Assembly: GCA_964630025.1 (NCBI GenBank) | Contig: CAZVRG010000004.1 | Span: 1 to 45,657, forward strand | Direction: 5' to 3' | DNA from: an uncultured Candidatus Saccharibacteria bacterium | Lineage (GTDB): Bacteria > Patescibacteriota > Andersenbacteria > UBA10190 > CAIZMI01 | Length of the DNA stretch: 45,657 nt | In this document: one piece after another, positions 4,043 through 44,162 of the stretch | Layout of the letters: each line of letters begins with the position of its first letter | Position numbering within the stretch: position 1 is the stretch's first letter | Made by a program: the position numbers and the translations under genes | The notes under the pieces: generated by a model | The model's input: the letters and a program-made list of their open reading frames with translations, nothing else | The model's database searches: none | What the model was told of the DNA's origin: nothing

Positions 4043-4834
4043 ATGTGGTCGGTAAGCGCATTGGTGATCGGAGCGATTGTTGGAAGCACGCTTACCACGA
4101 TTATTGAACGGCTCCCTCGGCAGGAATCATTCCTCCGAGGGAGATCGCGTTGCCCGCACTGCGGAACATCCCTGACCGCGCGGGACCTTTTCCCCATCGC
4201 AAGTTTTCTTCTGCTGCGCGGGCGGTGCCGGCACTGCGCTGTTCCCATTCCGCGCTGGCATCTGGCGGTGGAGATCAGTGTGCCGGCGTTGTTTCTTCTG
4301 GCGGTTGTGCTGCTGCCTGGGTCCGCGGTTCCTGATCAGGTTTCCCGCTGGGTGCTGCTCGCGTTGCTTCTCGCGCTCACGGTGATTGATCTGCAGACAT
4401 TTCTGTTGCCGGACGTGCTGGTGCTTGCCATGGCGGGCGTCGGTGTTGTGCGGAGTGTCACGTTGCACATGCCGCCCCTTCCCTCCGCACTTCTTGGAGG
4501 AATTGTTGGTTTAGGCGTGCTGGGGGCGTTTGCGCTGATCCCCTGGCGTCGTCGGTCGGGTGACCGTACCGATGCGCTTCCTGCAACCGCCATGGGACTT
4601 GGGGATGCAAAACTCGCCGGTGCGATGGGCGTTGTTCTCGGCATGCAGGGGCTCATCACGGCACTCTTTGTGGCGTTTGTCGCTGGCGGTGCGGTAGGAA
4701 GCGCACTTCTTCTCACGCGGCGCGCAACCTTTGCGAGCCGCATCCCGTTCGGACCATTCTTGGCGGGCGCAACGATGCTCATTCTCCTGTTTCCCAACCT
4801 TCCGCATCTCTTTTTTGGTCTGTTGGGATTCTGA
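4043..4834 (+). CDS. pilD: Prepilin peptidase / N-methyltransferase PilD (peptidase A24)
   Basis: N-terminal CPHC...CRHC zinc motif, a polytopic membrane profile and the GLGDAKLAGAMG catalytic Asp motif. Confidence 0.9.
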   Translation: MWSVSALVIGAIVGSTLTTIIERLPRQESFLRGRSRCPHCGTSLTARDLFPIASFLLLRGRCRHCAVPIPRWHLAVEISVPALFLLAVVLLPGSAVPDQVSRWVLLALLLALTVIDLQTFLLPDVLVLAMAGVGVVRSVTLHMPPLPSALLGGIVGLGVLGAFALIPWRRRSGDRTDALPATAMGLGDAKLAGAMGVVLGMQGLITALFVAFVAGGAVGSALLLTRRATFASRIPFGPFLAGATMLILLFPNLPHLFFGLLGF

Positions 4835-4835
4835 T

Positions 4836-4938
4836 ACACCCCGTTAGAGACCTTTGAGGATTTTTCGCGCTATCGCGCAGGGAATAGAGATATGAAACCA
4901 GCGTCGGCTTTTTCAGAAGGTTTCTAACGGGGTATACT
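4836..4938. repeat. CCCCGTTAGA-type inverted repeat, copy 1, ending in a TATACT -10 box
   Basis: Left arm ACACCCCGTTAGAGACC and right arm GGTTTCTAACGGGGTATACT, with a 65-nt spacer containing a small CGCG-CTAT-CGCG hairpin. TATACT lies at 4933-4938, 17 nt before ATG 4956. Confidence 0.8.
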
Positions 4939-4955
4939 ACAGAGAAACGGACAGC

Positions 4956-5546
4956 ATGACGCAATTCATAGGGAACAGGGAACAGAGAACAGGACACAGA
5001 GAACGCACGCAACGCGTCCCTGATCCCTGTTCCCTGATCCCTGTTCCTTTTCCCTCGTCGTCCGCTGGCATCACCTTCATTGAAGTGCTGGTCACGGTCT
5101 TCATCGTTGGGCTTATGTCCACCATTCTTCTCGTTGGCGCTGTCGGTGCGCGGAGAAACGCGACGGTCCGGACTGCCGCGCAGCAGGTAGCGGCATTTCT
5201 TCGTGAGACGGGAAACCTTGCGCTGAACGGCGTGAAAGCAGAAGATTGCGACCCAAGCGATTCGCAGTGCTCTGCCTATCGCGTCACGCTCGGTCCATCA
5301 GACACCAAGACCGCGTACATGCGTCAGGCGCTTGGCGGCGGAGAAGAAGTGCGTGTGCCGTTGCCCGTCGGTGCGGTGTTTCCCGTCACGAATCAAGAAG
5401 TGGAATTCGTCTACACCCCCCCAATCCTTTCTGCAACGGCGGCGGAGATTGCCATAACGCATACAACCGGCGCGCCGCGGTGGCTGGTCTGCGTCACCTC
5501 GCTGGGAAGTGTTACCGTACAAACAGGAGAACAGTGCGTGCAATGA
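4956..5546 (+). CDS. Minor pilin / pseudopilin (prepilin-type N-terminal domain)
   Basis: PSSSAG/ITFIEVLVTVFIVGLM with Glu+5. The ~38-aa leader is encoded by heptamer hairpin H1. No in-frame ATG, GTG or TTG lies between the hairpin and the cleavage motif. Confidence 0.75.
   Translation: MTQFIGNREQRTGHRERTQRVPDPCSLIPVPFPSSSAGITFIEVLVTVFIVGLMSTILLVGAVGARRNATVRTAAQQVAAFLRETGNLALNGVKAEDCDPSDSQCSAYRVTLGPSDTKTAYMRQALGGGEEVRVPLPVGAVFPVTNQEVEFVYTPPILSATAAEIAITHTTGAPRWLVCVTSLGSVTVQTGEQCVQ
4971..5047. repeat. Heptamer-arm hairpin H1 (inside the pseudopilin leader)
   Basis: Left arm GGGAACA GGGAACA GAGAACA GGACACA, core GAGAACGCACGCAACGCGTCCC, right arm TGATCCC TGTTCCC TGATCCC TGTTCC. The arms are near-perfectly complementary. 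Confidence 0.85.
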
Positions 5547-6238
5547 CACAAACACCAGTGAACAGGGAACAGGGAACAGGGAACAGGGAACGCACGCAGC
5601 GTGTCCCTCCAGTCTCTGGCCTAAGTAAGGCCTCGTCGTCCGGCTTTACCCTTCTCGGTGTTCTCATTGGCGCGTTGTTCATTGTTCTTGTCTCCACGGG
5701 ACTTGTGTTCACCGCACAGCGCACGGGACGTGTTGCCACCGCAACCAAAGAACGGCTCATTTCGACACTTCTTGCGCGGGAAGGTGTTGAACTTGTGCGC
5801 GCGATTCGCGATAACAACTGGCTCGCGACGCCGCGGTGTCCTGCAGTTGGCGCGTGCACGATTTTTTGGCGTGGGCAAACGAGTGGTCCGGGTGCACTCT
5901 GTAACGGAACGTTTCGCATCGATGCCGACGCGCTTGAACTTCTCCCTGCTTCCGCAGGTAGTGAAGAAACGCGGCTTGCACTCGATGGCACAGCATACCG
6001 TCATGGCAGCGGCACGCCAACGACATACCGGCGTTGGGTCACTATTGAATCGCCGGAGGAAGGATGCGGAACACCCTCGATCTTCTCCCTCGGATCCATT
6101 CCCGCTCCGCAACCGCCACAGCCGCTGACGGTGCGTGTGGTTGTGGCATGGGACGACAACCCCGATGCTTCCTGTGCGCCAGGCCGTCAGTGTGTTGAAT
6201 TACGAGAAGATCTTCACCCGTGGATGAATTTCCGATGA
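5543..6238 (+). CDS. Minor pilin / pseudopilin-like protein
   Basis: KASSSG/FTLLGVLIGALFIVLV, with no Glu+5. ATG 5543 overlaps the upstream TGA (ATGA), so it was preferred over the 5246 ORF extension, which overlaps the upstream gene out of frame. The leader is encoded by hairpin H2. Confidence 0.7.
   Translation: MTQTPVNREQGTGNRERTQRVPPVSGLSKASSSGFTLLGVLIGALFIVLVSTGLVFTAQRTGRVATATKERLISTLLAREGVELVRAIRDNNWLATPRCPAVGACTIFWRGQTSGPGALCNGTFRIDADALELLPASAGSEETRLALDGTAYRHGSGTPTTYRRWVTIESPEEGCGTPSIFSLGSIPAPQPPQPLTVRVVVAWDDNPDASCAPGRQCVELREDLHPWMNFR
5558..5620. repeat. Heptamer-arm element H2 (degenerate right arm)
   Basis: GTGAACA followed by four GGGAACA units (the last truncated), then core GCACGCAGCGTGTCCC. 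The right arm TCCAGTCTCTGG is only weakly complementary. Confidence 0.7.
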
Positions 6239-6861
6239 ACATACGGATACGAGGGATCAGAGAACAGGGGACAGTGAACAGAGAACGCACCCGACGCGTC
6301 CCTGTCCTCTGTGCTCTGCCCCCTGTCCCCGCGTCGTCCGGCTTTACCTTCATTGAAGCGATTGTTTCTGTTGCCATCTTTCTTGTGCTTATCGGTACGG
6401 TGGCGGGAATTTTTTCCACGTTCTCGCGCCAGCAGAAGCAGGGCATTACGCAGGCAACGCTTCTTGGGGAAGCGCAGGCCGCCATCGAAATCTTGGAACG
6501 GGAAGTACGGACAGGGTTCTCCAATACATTTTCCGGTGCTGGCGCCGCGTTCAGCTTTCGCAACCAAAATAACGTTCTCGTCACGTATGAACTCGCCGAT
6601 GGGCGCCTGATGCGGCGCGCTGTTCCTCCAGATCAAGCAACCCCGGTCACGCCGGCGACTGTGGAGATACGGTCGCTCGAATTTGTGACACGCACGCCAA
6701 CCATCGATCTTGGCGCAGCGCCCCAAGTGCCCATTCTCACCGGAGAACAAGGCCGCGTCACTGTCCGCATGCGCATGTGCCCCACAGGCATTGATACCGA
6801 TCAGCGATGCCTGCAGGTACAGACAACCTTAACGTCGCGCCAATATGCACCCGCACTCTAA
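6235..6861 (+). CDS. Minor pilin / pseudopilin
   Basis: PASSG/FTFIEAIVSVAIFLVLIG with Glu+5. ATG 6235 overlaps the upstream TGA; the alternative start is GTG 6220. The leader is encoded by hairpin H3. Confidence 0.7.
   Translation: MNIRIRGIREQGTVNRERTRRVPVLCALPPVPASSGFTFIEAIVSVAIFLVLIGTVAGIFSTFSRQQKQGITQATLLGEAQAAIEILEREVRTGFSNTFSGAGAAFSFRNQNNVLVTYELADGRLMRRAVPPDQATPVTPATVEIRSLEFVTRTPTIDLGAAPQVPILTGEQGRVTVRMRMCPTGIDTDQRCLQVQTTLTSRQYAPAL
6253..6330. repeat. Heptamer-arm hairpin H3
   Basis: Left arm GGGATCA GAGAACA GGGGACA GTGAACA GAGAAC, core GCACCCGACGCGTCC, right arm CTGTCCT CTGTGCT CTGCCCC CTGTCCCC. Confidence 0.8.
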
Positions 6862-7312
6862 GCGAGAACAGCGCATCACGCACACCTCGTCATCACGCGG
6901 TGATACATCGATTCTTCTTATTTCTCTGTTGCTGATCGTTCTTGTGCTTGGCGCAACGGCACTGACGGTCCTTTCTATAGTGAATCTTCGCGGAGCAGGA
7001 AATGTTGCCGAAAGCTCTCAAGCACTCTATGCCGCTGACACCGGCGTCGAACGCGGATTGTCACTGTACTGGTGGAGCAATCCGTTATCCCCAACATGTA
7101 CGCAGGAAGATAATGTTCCGGTGGGAGACGCCGCAACATACCAACTCACCGTTCGGTCGGATACTGATTCTTGCCCCACATTGCTGGATTTGCAAGGCGG
7201 CGTGCGCGCCCTGTGTGTAGAAGCAATCGGGAAAGTGCGTGATGGCGAGGTACGACGGCGTGTGACCAACGATACAAACCCCACAGGTCTTCTGAATCCC
7301 TGCGGTCGGTAG
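6845..7312 (+). CDS. PilX-like / minor-pilin-like protein with an N-terminal hydrophobic helix
   Basis: ILLISLLLIVLVLGATALTVL followed by ALYAADTGVERGL, reminiscent of PilX N-terminal domains. It overlaps the upstream gene by 17 nt and is last in the pilin operon. Confidence 0.55.
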   Translation: MHPHSKREQRITHTSSSRGDTSILLISLLLIVLVLGATALTVLSIVNLRGAGNVAESSQALYAADTGVERGLSLYWWSNPLSPTCTQEDNVPVGDAATYQLTVRSDTDSCPTLLDLQGGVRALCVEAIGKVRDGEVRRRVTNDTNPTGLLNPCGR

Positions 7313-7316
7313 ACTC

Positions 7317-9552
<2,236 letters not shown>

Positions 9553-9596
9553 GAGTACCGTCGCTTCGCACCCTGCTCTCCGTGTAAGATAGGATT

Positions 9597-9893
9597 ATGG
9601 TTCACTCCGATAGAACACTGGTGCCGCGCATTGCCGATCTTGCGCGTCTTGCGTTGACAGTGGAAGAAGAAAAACGTCTTGCAAAAGAATTCGAGGATAT
9701 TCTTTCCTACGTCAGTCAGGTACAAGAAGTTGACGCGTCAGAAGAACCACTCACCACAACCATCAGCGGCGTGCAGCATGTGCTTCGCAATGATGTGGCT
9801 GCCTCCTCCTCGCTCACAGAAGAGCTGTTGGCATGTGCTCCGGATGTGGAAAAACGTTCGGTGCGTGTTCCGCCGATTCTTTCTGCGTCATGA
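9597..9893 (+). CDS. gatC: Asp/Glu-tRNA amidotransferase subunit C
   Basis: 98 aa with IADLARLALTVEEEKRLAKEFEDILSYV, typical of GatC. Its stop overlaps the gatA start (ATGA). Confidence 0.85.
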   Translation: MVHSDRTLVPRIADLARLALTVEEEKRLAKEFEDILSYVSQVQEVDASEEPLTTTISGVQHVLRNDVAASSSLTEELLACAPDVEKRSVRVPPILSAS

Positions 9894-11320
9894 CCGCCTC
9901 GATTCGTGACCTTCATGAGCGTCTTCGCCGCGGGGAGACGACGGCGGAGAAACTTCTCGATGCCGCGCTCGTCGCCATACGGAAGCAGGATCAAACACTG
10001 CACAGTTTTCTTCATGTCGCCGAGGACTCGGCGCGCGCAGCTGCACAGCGCGTCGATCGCGCATTGCAGTCAGGAACGGAAGAGCTGTCCGTCCTCGCCG
10101 GCATACCCTGCGCGATCAAAGACATGATTTGCGTGGCAGGCCTTCCCGCTACGGCAGCGTCCCACATTCTGGAAGGATTTGTTCCTCCATATGACGCAAC
10201 GGTGATCCAGCGCCTCAAAGACCATGGCGCGGTGATTGTGGGGAAGACCAATCTGGACGAGTTCGCGATGGGTTCGAGCACGGAACATTCCGCGTTCGGT
10301 CCCACGCGCAACCCGCTCGATACAAAACGCGTGCCTGGCGGTTCATCCGGCGGGTCGGCCGCCGCGGTGGCAGCAGGATTTGTCCCCTATGCGCTCGGAA
10401 CAGATACCGGCGGATCGATTCGTCAGCCCAGCAGTTTTTGCGGCATTGTGGGGTTGAAACCCACCTACGGGCGCGTGAGCCGTTCCGGCGTGATCGCACT
10501 CGCCAGTTCCTTTGATCAGGTGGGCCCATTCGCGCGCACCGTCGAAGATGCCGCCATTGTCTATGAAGCAATTGCCGGGGAAGATCCCAAAGACGGAACC
10601 ACGCTGCGCGGCCCGGCGCCAACAGTGCTTCCTGCGCTCACAGAAGGCGTCGAAGGATTACGCATTGGCGTTCCGGAAGAGTATTTCGCCGAAGGCGTAG
10701 ATACAGGCGTTGCGCAGACAGTCCGGAAAGCCATCGGTGCTCTTGCCGGACTCGGTGCCGAAGTGGTTGATGTGTCGTTGCCGCTCACAGGAGTCGCGCT
10801 TGCGGTATACTACATGCTCATGGATTCGGAGGCGTCCACGAATCTCGCTCGCTATGACGGCGTGCGTTTTGGGCAGCGCGTGAAGTCCAAGACTCTTGAG
10901 GAGGTATATCGGAAGAGTCGCGGCGCGGGTTTTGGCGCGGAAGTGAAGCGACGCATTCTTCTGGGGACATTTGCGCTCTCTACGGGCTATGCAGATCAGT
11001 ATTACCGCAAAGCGGCGGCGGTGAGACGCGCAATCGCGAACGAATATGCGAAGGCATTTAAGACCGTTGACGTGCTGGTGTCTCCAGCCGCTCCCGAAGT
11101 GGCGTTCCGTCTCGGAGAGAAAGTAGCCGACCCGTTGCGTATGTATGCGTCGGATGCCTTGTCGGTACCCGCAAACGTTGCGGGCATTCCCGGACTTGTG
11201 GTGCCTTGCGGAACGGTGAACACGCTTCCCGTTGGCGTGCAAGTGCTTGCACCGCTGGGAAGAGAAGATCTGTTGTTTCGCGTTGGTGCCGCGTATGAGC
11301 GTGCGCGGGAACGCGCATGA
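9890..11320 (+). CDS. gatA: Asp/Glu-tRNA amidotransferase subunit A
   Basis: Amidase signature GGSSGGSAAAVA and TDTGGSIRQPSSFCG. ATG 9890 overlaps the gatC stop. Confidence 0.95.
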   Translation: MTASIRDLHERLRRGETTAEKLLDAALVAIRKQDQTLHSFLHVAEDSARAAAQRVDRALQSGTEELSVLAGIPCAIKDMICVAGLPATAASHILEGFVPPYDATVIQRLKDHGAVIVGKTNLDEFAMGSSTEHSAFGPTRNPLDTKRVPGGSSGGSAAAVAAGFVPYALGTDTGGSIRQPSSFCGIVGLKPTYGRVSRSGVIALASSFDQVGPFARTVEDAAIVYEAIAGEDPKDGTTLRGPAPTVLPALTEGVEGLRIGVPEEYFAEGVDTGVAQTVRKAIGALAGLGAEVVDVSLPLTGVALAVYYMLMDSEASTNLARYDGVRFGQRVKSKTLEEVYRKSRGAGFGAEVKRRILLGTFALSTGYADQYYRKAAAVRRAIANEYAKAFKTVDVLVSPAAPEVAFRLGEKVADPLRMYASDALSVPANVAGIPGLVVPCGTVNTLPVGVQVLAPLGREDLLFRVGAAYERARERA

Positions 11321-12789
11321 GCCTTCCCGATTCCATGCGCCGTTGGAAAGAATTGAGTGACACGTTTTTTCTCGCGGCACTCTGCGTATCTGTTGTCGCC
11401 GTGACGGGGTCTGTGCTCACGTTTGCGTTGTTTATGCAGCGCGCGGAAGTAAGCCGAGCGCAGGAGGCAGAGCCCCCTCCGGGTCCACCTCCGCCCGGAG
11501 ATCCACCGCCTCCCCCCGACGCTCCCCCTGTCGAACCGCCCGGTCCGCCTCCACCAGGACCGCCCCCCGGACCGCCTCCCGCGCCTCCTCCTGGACCGCC
11601 GGCACCCCCGCCACCCCCGAAACCGCCGCCAGCGCCTCCTCCACCGGGTCCCGTTCCTCCGCCTGTGCCACCCCCCGGTGGCGGGCCCGCACCCGTACCG
11701 CCTCCAGGCGGCGAGCCACCTGCTGTTGTTCCGCCAACACCCACGTCTCTGATGCAAAGGACTGTATCCCCAGAACCGATGACGCCCATCCAGCAGCCCG
11801 TATCAAGGTTCTCTTCTCCAGCGCAGTATCTTGGTTCTGCAGTGACTGTCATCGCAACAATGAGCGCCGTGGTGACGGGAGTGCTTGCCGCCGTTGCTCT
11901 TCCGTCGGGACTCTCCAGCATACTGCGTTCCTTCTTTCCATTTCTTGCGACACACCGCCGTCGCGCACGCTGGGGGCGGGTCGTGGAAGAAAAGACAAAC
12001 CTTCCTGTTGCAGGTGCCGTGATTACTATTCTTGATGTGTCCGGAAAGCCAAAGGACACCATCATCACACGGAGTGATGGCACGTTTGCCATGGTGCTTC
12101 CCCGTGGCACCTATCGGCTCTCGGTGCAGCATGCCGGATCTCTGTTCGCGTCCGCGCCGCGTGATGTGCTGCTGTTCCCTGAAGAGCAGCTGTACACGGG
12201 TGGCGTTATCACCGTCGAAGAGCAAGAGAAAGTCTTGCCGGACACGCCGCTCGTTCTTGCGATGACGCCCACAGGCGTTCGTCATCAAACATTCCGTGAA
12301 CGTGCGCACCCATTTCTGGAAGGCATGCGTGTGTTCCATGCGCACATCGCGATGCCGCTGCTGCTCACCGCGGCCGCAATCAATTCGTTGCTGCTCCTGA
12401 TCGAACCGAGCCCGCTGCTGGTTGCATACGAAGTTCTCTATGGCGCATTGCTCACGTTTGAACTTCTTCTTTCACGTGTGACGCGCCGCGCGGTCGGACG
12501 TGTTCGCGACGCGATCGGAAAGCACCCTGTGCCGCTTGCCATTGTCCGCTTGTTTGATACAGCAACGCAGCGCGTGGTCGCCACGCGCGTCACTTCGCCG
12601 CGAGGAAGTTACCTGCTGATGCCGCCGCCAGGTCGGTATCGCATCGCGGTCAGTCATCCCGCCCACGTGCCGTACACCAGCGATCCGCTTGCTATCCGCG
12701 GCGGGAGGACGGGGCTTGTGCGTCTCGTTGCGGATCTTGTTTGCTCTCCAAGCGCCGGCGACGTCGCGGGACAAACGCAGGGCATCTAG
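11317..12789 (+). CDS. Proline-rich membrane protein with two carboxypeptidase-regulatory-like domains (paralog P1)
   Basis: N-terminal TM (FFLAALCVSVVAVTGSVL) followed by ~90 aa of polyproline. The motifs WGRVVEEKTNLPVAGAVITILD...DGTFAMVLPRGTYRLSV and GRVRDAIGKHPVPLAIVRLFD...GRYRIAV match the CarboxypepD_reg pattern. ATG overlaps the gatA TGA. Confidence 0.7.
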   Translation: MSLPDSMRRWKELSDTFFLAALCVSVVAVTGSVLTFALFMQRAEVSRAQEAEPPPGPPPPGDPPPPPDAPPVEPPGPPPPGPPPGPPPAPPPGPPAPPPPPKPPPAPPPPGPVPPPVPPPGGGPAPVPPPGGEPPAVVPPTPTSLMQRTVSPEPMTPIQQPVSRFSSPAQYLGSAVTVIATMSAVVTGVLAAVALPSGLSSILRSFFPFLATHRRRARWGRVVEEKTNLPVAGAVITILDVSGKPKDTIITRSDGTFAMVLPRGTYRLSVQHAGSLFASAPRDVLLFPEEQLYTGGVITVEEQEKVLPDTPLVLAMTPTGVRHQTFRERAHPFLEGMRVFHAHIAMPLLLTAAAINSLLLLIEPSPLLVAYEVLYGALLTFELLLSRVTRRAVGRVRDAIGKHPVPLAIVRLFDTATQRVVATRVTSPRGSYLLMPPPGRYRIAVSHPAHVPYTSDPLAIRGGRTGLVRLVADLVCSPSAGDVAGQTQGI

Positions 12790-12842
12790 CACCATCTCAA
12801 ACGATCGTCATTGCGAGAGGAGAGCACGCATGACGGTTTTCC
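12786..12842 (+). terminator. CCATCTCAAA + GTCATTGCGAG-type hairpin after P1
   Basis: CGTCATTGCG-AGAGGAGAG-CACGCATGACG hairpin followed by GTTTT. The preceding CTAGCACCATCTCAAAC recurs inverted at 15404-15424. Confidence 0.5.
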
Positions 12843-12923
12843 ACAGACACCGGAAGTGATCTGCTATGCTATGAAGTATCCGACACAACACACAGCATAT
12901 GCCGATCTCTTTGGCAGTAACCT

Positions 12924-15311
12924 ATGGTCTTCGTGTCTAAGTGGCGCGACGCGAGCGATGCGTTTTTTCTTGCTGTCCTTCTGATCAGCGGTGTTTCCGT
13001 TGCCGGCGCTGTCTTAAGCTTGGCGCGGTTTGCGCAGGAATATGGTCCCGTTGTTGCGCAGGATCTTGAAGAGCCTGTTCCCCCACCTGGCCCGGCTCCA
13101 GAACCACCTCCGCCTGACCCACCGCCTCCGCCGCCTGGAACCGAACTAGCCCCCCCGGGTGGGGATCCTCCGCCCGCACCGGGCGGCGGGCCTGCTCCAG
13201 CTCCCGCACCTCCGCCAACGGGTGGTACTCCCCCAGCAGGTGGCACACCGCCCGCTCCGCCTCCGCGAGGGGGGCCAGGACCAGCGCCACAACCGGCGCC
13301 ACCCCCGCCAGTTGGCGTGCCGCCCGGCGTGGACGAAATTGAGCCCGCACCAGGTGAAACGGTCTCCCCAGTACCGACAAATGGTGTGTTTCCACCCGCC
13401 GTGCAGCCTGCTCCTCCGGGCGGAGGAGAGCCGGTGTCTGGTCACACGCTGCCGTGGTGGGGCGTGTTCTGGCATCCGGGCGGTGGCGGATTTATCCAGA
13501 TCCTTCCGTGGCAGCAGATTCTCCAAAAACCCATCACGTGGGTATGGATCTTTTTGTGGATTGCGATTTTCGTGTGGCTCTGGACAATTGTGCAGGCCAT
13601 CTATTGGTTCCCGGGATTTTTCTGGATTCTGTTCGGGTTCCACTCGTTCATTTGGTACTGGTATTGGCTGTGGACGTGGTTCTGGGGTTTCATTCGACCA
13701 CAACCGATCACTGTAGGAATTGGACCCGGTCCAGGACCCGGGCCATGGCCGGGTCCTGGACCACAACCTGCGCCTGGCCCCTGGCCGGGTCCTGGGCCGC
13801 AGCCCGGTCCACAACCCGGTCCCGGACCAACTCCGGGGCCTATGCCGGGCCCTCAACCTGGGCCCGCTCCCGGGCCTGGTCCGGGCCCCGGTCCGCAACC
13901 AGGTCCAACTCCTGGTCCGGGTCCTACCCCGCAACCTGGACCCATGCCTGGGCCGCAACCAGGTCCCAGCCCCGGTCCCCAGCCGGGTCCAATGCCAGGG
14001 CCACAGCCCGGGCCTCCCCCAGGCCCAATTCCTGGTCCGCAACCTGGGCCGACGCCCAGTCCAACTCCTGGTCCTATCCCGGGTCCCCAGCCGACGCCTG
14101 GCCCGTGGCCGGGCCCTGGCCCACAACCTGCGCCTGGCCCGTGGCCGGGCCCTGGGCCGCAGCCGGCGCCTACACCCGGTCCGCAACCTGGCCCCGGACC
14201 CATTGCTGGTCCGCCACCAATTTCCGGACCAGGCGGAGGCTCGCCATCTGGTCCGGCTCCCGATCCCGTGTCACCGGTTGAGGAGGGTATCGGAAGACTT
14301 CTGGCCAGATTGCCGTCACGTGCGGGAAGAATTGCCGCGGAGAGCGTTGCGCGCGGAGAGCTTCCTATTCCTGCATTAAGCGGACAGAGAGCGGCGGAAG
14401 CTCCGTCGCTCACAGAAGTGATGATGGCGTCTGCCGATTCTCGGCGTCTGACGGGTTTTTCCGCACTAGGCATTCTTGCCACACATCGATACCGATCGAA
14501 GTGGGGGCGCGTGATTGATGCCAAGAATGGGCTTCCTGTGCAAGGGGCAGTTGTGACGCTTCTGGATGCGCAGGGAAAACCGCGCCAAAACATTCGTACA
14601 AAAGCAGATGGCAATTTTGCGTTTCTTGTCCCTCCTGGCCGCTATCTTCTGAATGTGGTGCGTCCACACTATGTGATGGAAACGCAGCCCAAGTCGCCCG
14701 CGCTCTTTCCTGACGAAATCTTGTATACAGGAGCGCCCTTCGCCGTCGAGCCGTCACCCGATGGTCGGGAAACGCTCACGCCGCCGGTGGTGATCACCAT
14801 GAAATCTACAAAAAAAGGCGCGCAGGGCGTGTCTGTGCGTCCGGCCGTGCATCGGGTCAGCAATGCCGCGCGTGCACTGCATGCGCACGTGGCGCTTCCG
14901 ATCCTGTTATTGAGTGCAGGATTTAACACCTTTATGCTTCTTCTGCAGCCCACGCCGTTTCTTGTTGCCGCAGAAGTGCTTTACGGCGTCTTGCTGTCCA
15001 TGGAATTGTTGCTTTCCCGCGTCTTCCGCCGCGCGATCGGGCGTTTGCGTGATGCCGTGACACGCAATCCGGTTTCCCTTGCGATTCTTCGGCTCATGGA
15101 TGCGCGCACGGGACGCATTGTCAACACGTATGTGTCCACAGCGGGTGGGTCGTTTCTCTTCCTTTCTCGCCCCGGAGCCTACCGTCTCCTATCGGCACAT
15201 CCGAAATACCAACCGCATGATGAGCGGATTGCCATTCGCGGCGGATCGCCCGGGCTCGGAAGAGTAACGGTCCGCCTGCAGCCACGGGGGAAAGTGGTCG
15301 CGGCAGTCTAA
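12924..15311 (+). CDS. Proline-rich, Trp-rich membrane protein with a (PGPX)n repeat and two carboxypeptidase-regulatory-like domains (paralog P2)
   Basis: The N-terminus SKWRDASDAFFLAVLLISGV is homologous to P1. The C-terminal half is collinear with P1 (WGRVIDAKNGLPVQGAVVTLLD...GRYLLNV; GRLRDAVTRNPVSLAILRLMD...GAYRLLS). A unique W-rich block and a PGPX array are inserted between them. Confidence 0.7.
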   Translation: MVFVSKWRDASDAFFLAVLLISGVSVAGAVLSLARFAQEYGPVVAQDLEEPVPPPGPAPEPPPPDPPPPPPGTELAPPGGDPPPAPGGGPAPAPAPPPTGGTPPAGGTPPAPPPRGGPGPAPQPAPPPPVGVPPGVDEIEPAPGETVSPVPTNGVFPPAVQPAPPGGGEPVSGHTLPWWGVFWHPGGGGFIQILPWQQILQKPITWVWIFLWIAIFVWLWTIVQAIYWFPGFFWILFGFHSFIWYWYWLWTWFWGFIRPQPITVGIGPGPGPGPWPGPGPQPAPGPWPGPGPQPGPQPGPGPTPGPMPGPQPGPAPGPGPGPGPQPGPTPGPGPTPQPGPMPGPQPGPSPGPQPGPMPGPQPGPPPGPIPGPQPGPTPSPTPGPIPGPQPTPGPWPGPGPQPAPGPWPGPGPQPAPTPGPQPGPGPIAGPPPISGPGGGSPSGPAPDPVSPVEEGIGRLLARLPSRAGRIAAESVARGELPIPALSGQRAAEAPSLTEVMMASADSRRLTGFSALGILATHRYRSKWGRVIDAKNGLPVQGAVVTLLDAQGKPRQNIRTKADGNFAFLVPPGRYLLNVVRPHYVMETQPKSPALFPDEILYTGAPFAVEPSPDGRETLTPPVVITMKSTKKGAQGVSVRPAVHRVSNAARALHAHVALPILLLSAGFNTFMLLLQPTPFLVAAEVLYGVLLSMELLLSRVFRRAIGRLRDAVTRNPVSLAILRLMDARTGRIVNTYVSTAGGSFLFLSRPGAYRLLSAHPKYQPHDERIAIRGGSPGLGRVTVRLQPRGKVVAAV
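13720..14240 (+). repeat. Coding tandem repeat with 12-nt period, encoding (P-G-P-X)n
   Basis: ~43 tetrapeptide units (PGPQ/PGPT/PGPM/PGPW...). A ~62-nt block at 13741-13803 recurs nearly identically at 14101-14163, exactly 360 nt downstream. Confidence 0.9.
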
Positions 15312-15443: not shown

Positions 15444-17039
15444 CTACAGAAGGCTCGACAGCAGACTCTGCGCGGTCATATGCGCGGGTTTTGGCAGTCC
15501 GAGAATGTCGAGCGCTGTGGGACCCACATCGGCAAGAATGCCAATCGGTGTGCTTAGAACCTGAAAGAGAATGTCATCGTCTTTTGGCGTGGTGTGTTGA
15601 GTATGTGCGGCAACGTAGAGCAGGACCACCGGATTCGCGGAATGATCGGTTGTTCCTTCTCCGGTTTGTAGATTCTTCATTTCCTCGGCATTGCCGTGAT
15701 CGCAGGTGAGCAGCACTGCACCACCAGCCGCAAGCGCAGCCTGGACGACGCGGGGAATTTGCGTGTCGAGAAACCGGAGTCCTTCCACTGTCGCGTCAAA
15801 TTTTCCCGTGTGGCTGATCATGTCGGGATTCGCGTAGTTCATCACGATGAAGTCATACTTTCCTTTGCCGGTTTCCTGTACCACATGATCGGTGATCGCC
15901 TCCGCGCTCATGCGCGGCGTTTCGCTGTAGTCTTTCACGTTGGGAGAGGGCACAAGAACGCGATCTTCGTTCGGGAAGGGCAGCTCGCGCCCGCTATTAA
16001 AGTAATACGTCACGTGCGCGTATTTCTCGGTTTCGGCGACACGGAGCTGTCGCAATCCATGCTCGGCAAGAACACGACCAACGGGCATATCCATCCATTG
16101 CTCGGGAAAGGCAACCGTGACCGGCAGTCCTTTTTCGTACTCGGCCATCGTGACAAATGCAAGGTCGGTGAATTGGACGGTGGGGAATGATGAAAACCCT
16201 TTCGTCACGAATGCGTGCGTGAGCTGCCGCGCGCGGTCCGGGCGGAAATTGAAGAACACGACCGCATCTCCGTCCCGCACGGGACGCACCGATCCGCCGT
16301 CGGTGATCACGCATGCGGGAGCAGTTTCATCCGTTGTTTTCCGCTCATACGCCGCCTGCAGAGCCTCTTGCCACGAGCGGTAGGGCGTTCCGGTGCCCGC
16401 AGTCAGAAGATCGTATGCCGCGCGGGTGCGGTCCCAATGCGTATTTCGATCCATGGCATAGAAACGCCCAATGAGCGTGGCGATACGTCCCGCGCCCGTT
16501 TGGCGCATGGTGTTTTCCATTTCCGTGAGATACTGTCCCGCGCTGACCGGCGGCGTGTCGCGACCATCAAGAAATGCATGGATGAGCGTTTGTTTGCCAA
16601 CGCCTTGCTCTGCCGCAAATGTAAGAAGCGCCTGCAGATGCTGCAGATGACTGTGGACCCCGCCAGGGGATGCGCACCCCATCAGGTGTAGAACGGACCC
16701 AGGGCGCTCCTTCACATGGGCAACCGCTTCCTGAAATGCCACGTTCTGAAAGAAGCTTCCGTCTTGAATCGCAAGCGTAATTTGCGGCAACGGCTGATAG
16801 ATCACGCGGCCGGAGCCGATATTTTTGTGTCCCACTTCCGAGTTGCCGACCTCTCCCCACGGAAGACCGACTTCAATGCCTGCAGCACGAATCGCAGCGC
16901 ACGGATAGGAACGAAGATAGTTCTGCAGATTCGTCATCTGTGCCGCGAGAACGGCGTTTCCATCCTCGATAAACGAAATCCCGAACCCATCGAGAATCAT
17001 CAGCACAAGCGGCCGTGGGCGTGGTGAAGGTGCCTCCAT
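15444..17039 (-). CDS. gpmI: 2,3-bisphosphoglycerate-independent phosphoglycerate mutase
   Basis: LMILDGFG, the catalytic Ser motif NSEVGHKNIGSGR, and CDHGNAE. The start was set to ATG 17039 because the longer ORF reads through the antisense strand of a tRNA gene. Confidence 0.9.
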   Translation of the reverse strand: MEAPSPRPRPLVLMILDGFGISFIEDGNAVLAAQMTNLQNYLRSYPCAAIRAAGIEVGLPWGEVGNSEVGHKNIGSGRVIYQPLPQITLAIQDGSFFQNVAFQEAVAHVKERPGSVLHLMGCASPGGVHSHLQHLQALLTFAAEQGVGKQTLIHAFLDGRDTPPVSAGQYLTEMENTMRQTGAGRIATLIGRFYAMDRNTHWDRTRAAYDLLTAGTGTPYRSWQEALQAAYERKTTDETAPACVITDGGSVRPVRDGDAVVFFNFRPDRARQLTHAFVTKGFSSFPTVQFTDLAFVTMAEYEKGLPVTVAFPEQWMDMPVGRVLAEHGLRQLRVAETEKYAHVTYYFNSGRELPFPNEDRVLVPSPNVKDYSETPRMSAEAITDHVVQETGKGKYDFIVMNYANPDMISHTGKFDATVEGLRFLDTQIPRVVQAALAAGGAVLLTCDHGNAEEMKNLQTGEGTTDHSANPVVLLYVAAHTQHTTPKDDDILFQVLSTPIGILADVGPTALDILGLPKPAHMTAQSLLSSLL

Positions 17040-17140
17040 TCCCTGTAGTATAGCGGCTCTCCGAGAAATACCTTGCTTTCGTCGAGGAAATACGCTATAG
17101 TTGCGCTGTTCAAGGCAGGGTCTTGAACGCGATATGTTGT

Positions 17141-17215
17141 CGCCGGGTGGAGAAGTGGTATCTCGCCAGGCCCATAACCTGGAGATCGCCGGTTCAAATC
17201 CGGCCCCGGCTACCA
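17141..17215 (+). tRNA. tRNA-Met (CAT), initiator type
   Basis: A manual cloverleaf fold gives acceptor CGCCGGG/CCCGGCT with a 1:72 mismatch, A11:U24, anticodon stem CCAGG/CCTGG, loop CCCATAA, T-arm GCCGG-TTCAAAT-CCGGC, and an encoded CCA. Confidence 0.85.
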
Positions 17216-17229
17216 GCATACCGAGAGAC

Positions 17230-17253
17230 CCGCAAAGCGCGGGCTTTTCGGTA
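17230..17253 (+). terminator. Short hairpin plus T-run after the initiator tRNA
   Basis: CCCGC-AAAGC-GCGGG followed by CTTTTCGG. Confidence 0.4.
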
Positions 17254-17357
17254 TTCCTGTTGGGCGGGATTTGAAAGATAGTTTCAAAAGCACATTGACC
17301 GGAAGATCGATTTGGTATAGAGTCCCGCAGGGAACTGTACCGTGAAAGGAGCATACT

Positions 17358-17823: not shown

Positions 17824-17898
17824 GCCGGTGTAGCTCAGTGGCAGAGCGATGGACTCATAAGCCATAGGTCGCAGGTTCGATCCCTGCCGCCGGCACCA
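17824..17898 (+). tRNA. tRNA with CAT anticodon, elongator type (Met, or Ile2 if lysidine-modified)
   Basis: Acceptor GCCGGTG/CGCCGGC, D-arm GCTC-AGTGGCA-GAGC, loop CTCATAA, T-arm GCAGG-TTCGATC-CCTGC, and an encoded CCA. Confidence 0.85.
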
Positions 17899-17958: not shown

Positions 17959-18036
17959 GGCCCCGTGGTGTAGCCTGGTAAACATAGCACCTTGTCAAGG
18001 TGAAGATCGCCGGTTCAAATCCGGTCGGGGCCGCCA
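17959..18036 (+). tRNA. tRNA-Asp (GTC)
   Basis: Acceptor GGCCCCG/CGGGGCC, anticodon loop TTGTCAA, T-arm GCCGG-TTCAAAT-CCGGT, discriminator G, and an encoded CCA. Confidence 0.85.
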
Positions 18037-29558: not shown

Positions 29559-29735
29559 GCGACCGCAAAAACAAGCGCACTGTTGATGCACTGACAGGCC
29601 GGCAGAGCCGGACCTTTTCGTGCATCAACCCTTCAGACTCGCGCTTCGCTCCATTCCTCGCTCAACGGATCACCAATCCGTCTCGCTCGGTACTCGCTCC
29701 AGCGCTTCGCATTGCATCTTGTTTTTGCGGTCTCG
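29559..29735 (+). repeat. ~175-nt structured repeat, copy E2 (a partial extra copy extends to ~29810)
   Basis: Outer stem GCGACCGCAAAAACAAG/CTTGTTTTTGCGGTCTCGC. Stem 2 is GTTGATGCAC/GTGCATCAAC, capped by CCGGCAGAGCCGG. Stem 3 is ACGGAT/ATCCGT. It has the same conserved blocks as E1 and starts 4 nt after the nusG stop. Confidence 0.85.
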
Positions 29736-29877
29736 CGCGTGCTCCATTCGCTTTTAGCCCTCAGCTCTCCATCTACCTCATCACGATTCTGCAGTCTCGC
29801 GCGTGCGTTGTTTACTTTCAGTTATCAGCTTGGACTAGGATTTTGGCTTATGTAAGCAATTTTACTCCTATCGGCTA

Positions 29878-43980: not shown

Positions 43981-44162
43981 AAAACCGCATACACTGGCGC
44001 GCTGTTCGCTCACGAATCCCACCGGCACAGCCGGATGCGTTCGTGAGCGAACCCTTCGGGCTTGGCGTTCGCTCCGCTCCTCACTCGCTGTATGTCACAT
44101 ACAGCTCGTTCGGTGCTCGCTCCACGCCTACGCATCGTATCCAGTTTCTGCGGTTTTTTTTT
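43979..44162 (+). repeat. ~175-nt structured repeat, copy E3 (ends in a T-run)
   Basis: Outer stem AAAACCGCATACACTGG/CCAGTTTCTGCGGTTTT followed by T9. Stem 2 is GTTCGCTCACGAA/TTCGTGAGCGAAC, capped by CCGGCACAGCCGG. Stem 3 is GCTGTATG/CATACAGC. It starts on the stop codon. Confidence 0.85.

Follow-up and report, generated by a model that had tools for sequence, protein, structure and literature searches.

A putative tryptophan-rich membrane anchor followed by a hypervariable X-Pro linker in a membrane protein of an uncultured Parcubacteria bacterium

Repeats of the X-Pro type between a membrane anchor and a folded domain are known from TonB, with its (Glu-Pro)n(Lys-Pro)n segment, and from the (Glu-Pro)n of trypanosome procyclin; both are thought to be extended polyproline-II (PPII) structures. 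Dense clusters of tryptophan beside or within membrane-active segments are found in the membrane-proximal external region (MPER) of HIV gp41 and in Trp-rich antimicrobial peptides, and gramicidin A ends in an alternating (Trp-X)4 pattern. Here we describe P2, a gene on contig CAZVRG010000004.1 of assembly GCA_964630025.1 (45,657 nucleotides; this whole stretch was analysed and is called the window below), the product of which appears to bring the two kinds of element together: a Trp-rich hydrophobic block, conserved in the few relatives found, is followed by a long uncharged X-Pro array at the place of a hypervariable linker. The parts of P2 concerned are the following (aa, amino acids):

12924..15311, + strand: P2 coding sequence, 795 aa, stop included; the reading frame is open throughout

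13449..13706, + strand: Trp-rich hydrophobic block (aa 176-261), with 17 W, 12 F and 3 Y in 86 aa

13533..13691, + strand: conserved 53-aa Trp core (aa 204-256), consisting of helix A (TWVWIFLW..WLWTI.QA), the turn FPGF and then WYWYWLW..FW

13722..14240, + strand: (X-Pro)n array (aa 267-439), 173 aa without D, E, K, R or H

The array resembles those of TonB and procyclin in that an X-Pro repeat (83 of 86 dipeptides) lies downstream of membrane segments and ahead of C-terminal domains. It differs from them in being uncharged (X = Gly, Gln, Thr, Trp, Ala, Met), far longer (173 aa) and tied to the membrane at both ends. Charged Glu-Pro or Lys-Pro blocks are absent from P2, and the Pfam and NCBIfam scans gave no match to the TonB C-terminal domain (TonB_C), so P2 does not belong to the TonB family; the Pfam match of the array to the procyclin family Trypan_PARP is a trace only (E = 2.2). 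Uncharged linkers rich in Pro, Thr, Ser and Gly, such as the Pro-Thr linkers of cellulases and the Pseudobdellovibrio protein P0006, are likewise inter-domain and hypervariable and have Pro at alternate positions, and P0006 aligns to the array with 39% identity over 34% of the query. These linkers, however, match by composition and not by homology, and a Trp-rich membrane block accompanies none of them. The array thus belongs to the known X-Pro and Pro-rich spacers, from which it stands apart by being uncharged, rich in Gly and Gln and unusually long. Elastomeric repeats of the GPGXX or VPGVG type (flagelliform silk, elastin) were considered and rejected, the period of the array being 2 or 4 and not 5. 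In the comparison with hydroxyproline-rich glycoproteins (arabinogalactan-protein type), which are secretory proteins of eukaryotes that carry hydroxylated Pro and O-linked sugars, the strongest composition-driven matches of the array were algal proteins; the host is a bacterium of the candidate phyla radiation (CPR).

With gp41 MPER and the Trp-rich peptides the block of P2 shares the dense Trp cluster beside or within a membrane-active segment, and its alternating W-X pattern recalls that of gramicidin A. Unlike all of these, it is internal to a polytopic bacterial protein and far longer (53-86 aa, with 24% Trp in the core), and its sequence is unrelated to theirs. Dense Trp clusters beside or within membrane-active segments are described in PMC7746737 and PMC6017362.

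Over its full length P2 is collinear with open reading frames (ORFs) in two Logan contigs, L001 (8552-10735; product L001c) and L002 (1285-3252; product L002c), at 67-71% amino acid identity. Between the orthologs of P2 and those of its tandem paralog P1, these contigs carry an extra middle paralog (L001 6574-8469, complete, product L001b; L002 35-1279, partial), for which the window genome has no counterpart. The Trp block is present in five proteins, i.e. P2, L001c, L002c, the middle paralog L001b and the product of a divergent, less Trp-rich P2-like gene in L083, the four relatives coming from three metagenome contigs. A preliminary description of this DNA, made from the letters alone, had spoken of roughly 20 Trp in about 85 residues; the richness in Trp stands, and the count has to be lowered to 17 in 86. 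Even so, the 12 other genes of the window that served as background have 0.9% Trp and at most 6 W per 86 aa, and the binomial P for the block is ~4e-18. The 53-aa core holds 13 Trp in P2, 12 in L001c and in L001b, 11 in L002c and 10 in L083. The five closest sequences (the partial middle paralog of L002 included) share its motifs WLWTI.QA, FPGF and WYWYWLW..FW without any change, and the alternating (W-X)6 pattern is kept in the divergent L083 protein as well, as VWFWSWVWKWPW. Between P2 and L001c, the core differs at codon positions 1, 2 and 3 in 12, 8 and 28 cases, respectively, and this excess at third positions argues that its reading frame is under purifying selection. A core of 53 aa of which about one quarter is Trp is exceptional for a ribosomally made protein. 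It is all the more striking in a CPR bacterium, as members of this group are generally thought to be poor in amino acid biosynthesis and to depend on other cells. This argues for a role, in the membrane or at an interface, that is under strong selection.

When 1.84 billion representative proteins were searched exhaustively with HMMER and a profile of the Trp block, only the block's own ortholog cluster (represented by P0002) was returned. No Pfam family and no PDB entry matched the block at E <= 10, and a scan of JGI metagenomes for the patterns WYWYWLW and W[RK]DASDAF revealed no relative. A word-index search with the alignment of the block also returned nothing, but it missed the known orthologs too (124 and 97 bits locally), so its null result is unreliable and the exhaustive search was relied on instead. 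The scan of GTDB genomes with the family alignment, which gave no relatives, is a weak null as well, since its two peptide patterns do not fit the known relative in Gr01-1014_38 (TWREASDAF, DGTFGALLP). As far as these sequence comparisons go, the Trp block is conserved, has no known relatives and is restricted to its lineage; neither the block nor the array is matched in Pfam, NCBIfam or PDB, in agreement with the earlier remark that no described domain is known to combine the two. An origin of the block from an inverted X-Pro array was also considered and rejected, because its reverse complement shows no DNA similarity to the Pro-rich regions beyond that of codon-shuffled controls. CCA reads TGG on the opposite strand, and the DNA that encodes WYWYWLWTWFW would give PEPRPQPIPVP in antisense; given the negative result, this antisense Pro pattern is mere codon complementarity.

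A short PITVGI bridge joins the Trp block to the array. The latter has a period of two residues, with Pro at 83 of the 86 alternate positions and with the dipeptides GP (45), QP (14), TP (7), WP (4), AP (4) and MP (3). It had first been read as some 170 residues of a strict PGPX repeat distinct from collagen. The length was right (173 aa), and Gly-X-Y is indeed absent, Gly and Pro alternating with a period of 2 (or 4). The strict PGPX unit, however, gives way to the X-Pro dipeptide as the real repeat: PGPX is the commonest four-residue reading, occurs in phase in runs of at most 6 units (124 of the 173 aa) and is interrupted by phase slips between them. At the DNA level, Tandem Repeats Finder (TRF) detected periods of 12, 18, 24 and 36 nt with 61-86% matches, among them a 36-nt tandem unit at 14091-14171 (86% matches); the 12-nt period pointed out before is therefore present, but weak (61-76% matches) and accompanied by the others. 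Within 13449-14260 the longest exact repeat measures 25 nt. The 360-nt direct repeat of the preliminary description was recovered and scores best among the offsets of 6-480 nt (13741-13803 against 14101-14163, 57 of 63 positions identical), and in the reading frame of P2 it corresponds to a 21-codon unit:

13743..13805, + strand: proximal copy of the 21-codon unit PWPGPGPQPAPGPWPGPGPQP (in-frame reading)

14103..14165, + strand: distal copy of the same unit, 360 nt downstream

The two copies differ in six codons, all of them synonymously, and the longest exact run between them is 20 nt. We estimate the chance of an all-synonymous outcome at ~5e-4, taking ~28% of random substitutions in these codons to be synonymous. 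That all six differences are silent argues that the peptide PWPGPGPQPAPGPWPGPGPQP is selected in this frame. Furthermore, the four Pro codons are used almost evenly in the array (24/23/20/18) and are biased to CCG and CCC elsewhere in the window. Such even use lowers the repetitiveness of the DNA and is consistent with selection on the peptide together with degeneracy at the DNA level.

The segment that follows the Trp block differs strongly among the relatives. The distance from the block to the motif VEE.IGR is 197 aa in the window, filled with X-Pro. In L001c it is 146 aa (about 100 aa Gly-rich, then a charged X-Pro stretch), in L002c 65 aa of mixed composition, in the middle paralog 26 aa, i.e. 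almost nothing, and in L083 about 110 aa of a generic Pro-rich type. The distal end of the array, GPQPGPGPIAG, just after the distal copy of PWPGPGPQPAPGPWPGPGPQP, is common to P2 and L001c (there PGPWPAPQPGPGPIAG), which indicates that a short X-Pro linker is ancestral and was lengthened in the window lineage by internal duplication. As only the Trp block is conserved and the following segment changes in length and composition, the earlier view of a poly-Trp segment combined with a PGPX rod is supported in part: the combination as such is not conserved. From the sequences compared, the linker after the Trp block is hypervariable, a fast-changing spacer and not a conserved domain, and the family is in this respect a clean natural example of linker evolution selected by composition and free of sequence.

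The members of the P1/P2 family are built in the same order: an N-terminal anchor, a hypervariable low-complexity loop, a second hydrophobic helix with an Arg cluster, a beta-sandwich, a transmembrane (TM) hairpin and a second beta-sandwich. P1 and the remaining parts of P2 are:

11317..12789, + strand: P1, tandem paralog of P2, 490 aa, without Trp block and without X-Pro array, with an ordinary second TM helix

12960..13025, + strand: N-terminal membrane anchor TM1 of P2 (aa 13-34), from a hydrophobicity scan; preceded by the motif KWRDASDAFF

13071..13448, + strand: acidic Pro-rich low-complexity region (aa ~50-175), from the translation

14256..14492, + strand: conserved Arg-rich amphipathic segment that links the array to the first beta domain (aa 445-523); P2 orthologs are ~80% identical here

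14493..14798, + strand: first transthyretin-like beta-sandwich (CarboxypepD_reg, PF13620; Pfam E = 5e-18)

14883..15014, + strand: TM helical hairpin; its turn is QPTP, Glu is invariant at two positions (E684, E694), and Arg/Lys clusters lie on both flanks

15081..15272, + strand: second transthyretin-like beta-sandwich (second PF13620 stretch; strands at 280-343 of the AlphaFold2 (AF2) model of the C-terminal part)

The motif KWRDASDAFF is invariant in 6 of 6 aligned paralogs and orthologs, and W(R/K)(D/E)(A/L)SD(A/T)F is invariant across the family. The N-terminus itself reads KWRDASDAFFLAVLL and has no prepilin motif, and the Trp block is internal, so neither a type IV pilin signal nor an LPXTG-type sorting signal is present. 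The loop that corresponds to aa ~50-175 of P2 consists in the relatives of poly-Pro, of (AP)7 or of Gly/Asp/Lys-rich sequence, and it is hypervariable in P1-type members too. P1, as had been noticed before, has neither the Trp block nor the array. PF13620 is matched above its gathering score (cutoff 32.3 bits) by both proteins, with 65.7 bits in two stretches for P2 and with 72.8 bits for P1, and the first beta domain is modelled by AF2 with a predicted local distance difference test (pLDDT) score of 85-92 (C-terminal model). The beta domains match NOMO2 and SdrD by sequence, and a Foldseek search with the C-terminal model returned CnaB, SdrD B, pilin and carboxypeptidase D transthyretin-like domains at the domain level only (E ~1e-3) and without a functional clue. 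The likeness of P2 to proteins of the CarboxypepD_reg/transthyretin-like/CnaB type (PF13620; NOMO, SdrD B) is thus limited to single domains. The AF2 model of full-length P2 has a pLDDT of 42.9, too low for fold comparison, and only its secondary structure was used, with caution. In the hairpin (aa 654-697 of P2 and its equivalent in P1), all members have the invariant Glu pair in the second helix, in the context A.E.LYG.LL..ELLL, and a Pro-x-Pro turn. Among 5.8 billion proteins, only 11 were matched by a profile built on the conserved C-terminal half, one of them from Parcubacteria group bacterium Gr01-1014_38, and the arrangement beta-sandwich/TM hairpin/beta-sandwich with an N-terminal anchor and a low-complexity loop is found in only ~11 proteins. 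By its sequence P2 is a genuine gene, and it is predicted to encode a polytopic membrane protein.

We consider it reasonably likely that P2 is the derived tandem paralog of a small family restricted to its lineage, in which a conserved aromatic anchor has replaced the ordinary second TM helix (TM2) of the P1-type paralog, followed by a length-variable spacer of the PPII type. The roles of anchor and spacer, the single crossing of the membrane and the conformation of the array are what we infer here. P1-type proteins have a hydrophobic segment just before an HRRRARW cluster, whereas P2-type proteins have none at this place, their Trp block being situated further upstream. Since the conserved downstream module has to retain its topology, in the simplest arrangement the Trp block would replace TM2 and cross the membrane once. 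Helix A would span the membrane, while the FPGF turn and the (W-X)6 segment would sit at the interface, and together the three may serve as an anchor of high affinity in the membrane or at the interface, with one crossing overall. Trp and Tyr are residues that favour the membrane interface (Wimley-White scale). The array, in turn, may serve as an uncharged, length-variable tether that joins the conserved module to the Trp anchor. It would be selected for composition only (Pro at every second position and no charge), being free in sequence and length, and it probably grew in the window lineage by internal duplication of a short ancestral X-Pro linker.

The hydrophobicity scan gave no TM-like segment in 14256..14492. 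As nothing hydrophobic thus separates the array from the first beta domain, the array and both beta domains should share one side of the membrane, whether the Trp block crosses it once or twice. Both of its ends are tied to membrane-embedded parts, i.e. to the Trp block and to the module of beta domains and TM hairpin, which makes a tether or loop more plausible than a projecting rod and weakens the rod of the preliminary description. A residue that stands before Pro can adopt only extended or PPII conformations, and X-Pro repeats such as those of TonB and procyclin act as extended spacers; since every second residue is Pro, the array should be extended and PPII-like. Its contour length would be up to ~50 nm (3.1 Angstrom per residue), and the real span would be much shorter if Gly gives flexibility. 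P1 has ~14-15 Lys+Arg on the side of the beta domains versus ~3 on the other side, and the hairpin is flanked in every member by 5 K/R after it and 2-3 before it. By these positive-inside counts, we lean towards a cytoplasmic location of the array and of both beta domains.

Several points weigh against this interpretation. The fold matches are mostly extracytoplasmic domains (CnaB, SdrD B, pilin, carboxypeptidase transthyretin-like), whereas the positive-inside counts point to the cytoplasm. In the Trp block AF2 draws two helices (203-228 and 231-257), both of membrane-spanning length, i.e. a hairpin with two crossings, at a low pLDDT of only ~50-59. Gly at half of the X positions could leave the array flexible and not extended. 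The W-containing unit is perfectly kept at both ends of the array, which a pure spacer does not explain and which may point to a role of the sequence itself. Finally, no member of the P1/P2 family has a known function, and some 11 related proteins in 5.8 billion give low comparative power.

Among the alternatives, a surface stalk fares best, and we regard it as possible though doubtful. The Trp block would here be a two-helix hairpin, and the array and both beta-sandwiches would lie outside, with the array as a cell-wall-spanning stalk similar to the Pro-rich wall-spanning regions in surface proteins of Gram-positive bacteria. The two helices of membrane-spanning length in the AF2 model (low confidence) and the resemblance of the beta domains to the mostly extracytoplasmic CnaB, SdrD B, pilin and carboxypeptidase transthyretin-like domains speak for it, and hypervariable low complexity is typical of exposed regions. 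The conserved downstream module, however, needs the same topology in P1 and P2, and the Lys+Arg distribution of P1 (~14-15 vs ~3) reads as cytoplasmic. Moreover, the TM hairpin follows the first beta domain, so this domain cannot project far from the membrane.

It is unlikely, in our opinion, that the array is a contingency locus, the length of which switches often in populations by recombination or slippage, e.g. over the 360-nt interval between the 63-nt copies. Such switching would fit the 360-nt direct repeat with its 57/63 identity, the 36-nt tandem unit at 14091-14171 (86% matches), the great differences in linker length between related species and the break of two same-strain assemblies inside P2. 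But the repetition of the DNA is weak, its longest exact repeat being 25 nt overall and 20 nt between the 360-nt copies, and the near-even use of the four Pro codons lowers it further. Expansion and contraction of the array by recombination, as proposed earlier, is thus formally possible and at the same time poorly supported by copies that are 90% identical and share exact runs of at most 20 nt. Simple-sequence contingency loci are made of near-perfect tandem DNA repeats, and the array, with TRF matches of 61-86% and a longest exact repeat of 25 nt, is not of this kind. The repeats of Borg elements are reportedly near-perfect at the DNA level and recent. Unlike them, the P2 array is degenerate in DNA and selected as a peptide. 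Amino acid tandem repeats give rise to new disordered regions in Borg elements (PMC9879509), and what the two cases have in common is the concept of in-frame repeats that evolve rapidly and create low-complexity protein segments.

The assembly breaks lie outside the array as well. In GCA_007375805.1 (VMFA01000006.1), positions 4169-13213 of the window are 100% identical and the contig ends at 13213; in ENA assembly ERZ27284378 (k139_76875), which represents the same strain and is also 100% identical, the end is at 13186. Both ends fall within the Pro-rich region near the N-terminus of P2 and precede the array by ~500 nt; the GC content there is 76-77%, and no repeat exceeds 13 nt. They probably reflect a dropout of coverage and not a repeat problem. 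As both same-strain assemblies stop upstream of the array, its length is given by the window contig alone, and no variant of it within the strain was seen; the lack of any exact repeat >25 nt in 13449-14260 makes a k-mer collapse unlikely. Look-ups of two versions of the neighbouring cofactor-independent phosphoglycerate mutase (iPGM) product, for contigs that enter the array from the 3' side, found none on record.

We think it quite improbable that the Trp block is a new aromatic membrane-insertion module that is held between two Pro-rich tethers (~140 aa upstream, 173 aa downstream) and anchors in, or perturbs, another membrane, e.g. that of the host of an episymbiotic CPR cell, with the hypervariable tethers tuning its reach or evading recognition. 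Hardly credible is an artefact or pseudogene, i.e. that block and array are a mis-assembled or non-coding GC-rich low-complexity stretch open by chance: on either strand the region is open in several further frames, the full P2 product has no database record and independent assemblies do not span it, but the flanks are in one frame and collinear with the orthologs, the Trp core changes mainly at third positions, the differences between the repeat copies are all synonymous and no repeated k-mer >25 nt is there to cause a collapse. The family could inform how CPR organisms build or use their envelope. Its scope is narrow, as it occurs in only a few metagenomic contigs, and an X-Pro array by itself is an ordinary type of low-complexity spacer.

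In the window, P1 and P2 are tandem paralogs on the + strand, only 135 nt apart, and are flanked by gatA (9833..11320) and by the convergent iPGM gene. The order gatA-[paralogs]-iPGM is common to the window, L001 and L002. In Parcubacteria group bacterium Gr01-1014_38, the order ligA-gatC-gatA-X-iPGM is the same as in the window, X being there a single gene of the P1 type. Other genes in the window (DnaE, GyrB, GatB, FtsW, type IV pilus genes, tRNAs) are those of a housekeeping chromosome. GyrB has a best identity of 60-63% to representative genomes, the top matches being mostly metagenome-assembled genomes of Patescibacteria (CPR). Judged from the GyrB matches and the shared gene order, the host is an uncultured Parcubacteria (CPR) bacterium that carries P2 on its chromosome. 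A promoter and terminator scan was uninformative.

An exact look-up of the full P2 product in the protein collection gave no record, and the orthologs P0001 and P0002 in public gene calls start internally and are shortened for this reason. This is systematic for the P1/P2 family in the window, L001, L002, L083 and L084, where public calls are shortened to internal starts with products of 230-590 aa, and where spurious antisense ORFs are called across the Pro-rich parts of the genes. Consequently, the N-terminal anchors, the low-complexity loops and some of the Trp blocks are absent from protein databases.

Three tRNA genes (two tRNA-Met and one tRNA-Asp) are located at 17141-17215, 17824-17898 and 17959-18036. 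On the opposite strand, the long ORF 15444..17354 has a 5' extension that runs into the first tRNA-Met gene, so the mutase gene must begin further in, probably near 17039 or 17000.

A further observation concerns an element of ~175-180 nt that is dispersed in the window in three intergenic copies (7318-7500, 29560-29742 and 43982-44160), with ~70-76% pairwise identity and terminal inverted repeats (GAGACCGCA.AAAC ... GTTTTTGCGGTCTC). No Rfam family matches it at E <= 1, and its consensus fold is strong, with 62 pairs of which 22 are changed on both sides (from three copies only). The copy upstream of ligA is missing from the orthologous gap in L001, and L001 begins with a fragment of such an element. 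The element looks like either a mobile element resembling miniature inverted-repeat transposable elements (MITEs) or an undescribed structured RNA of this lineage.

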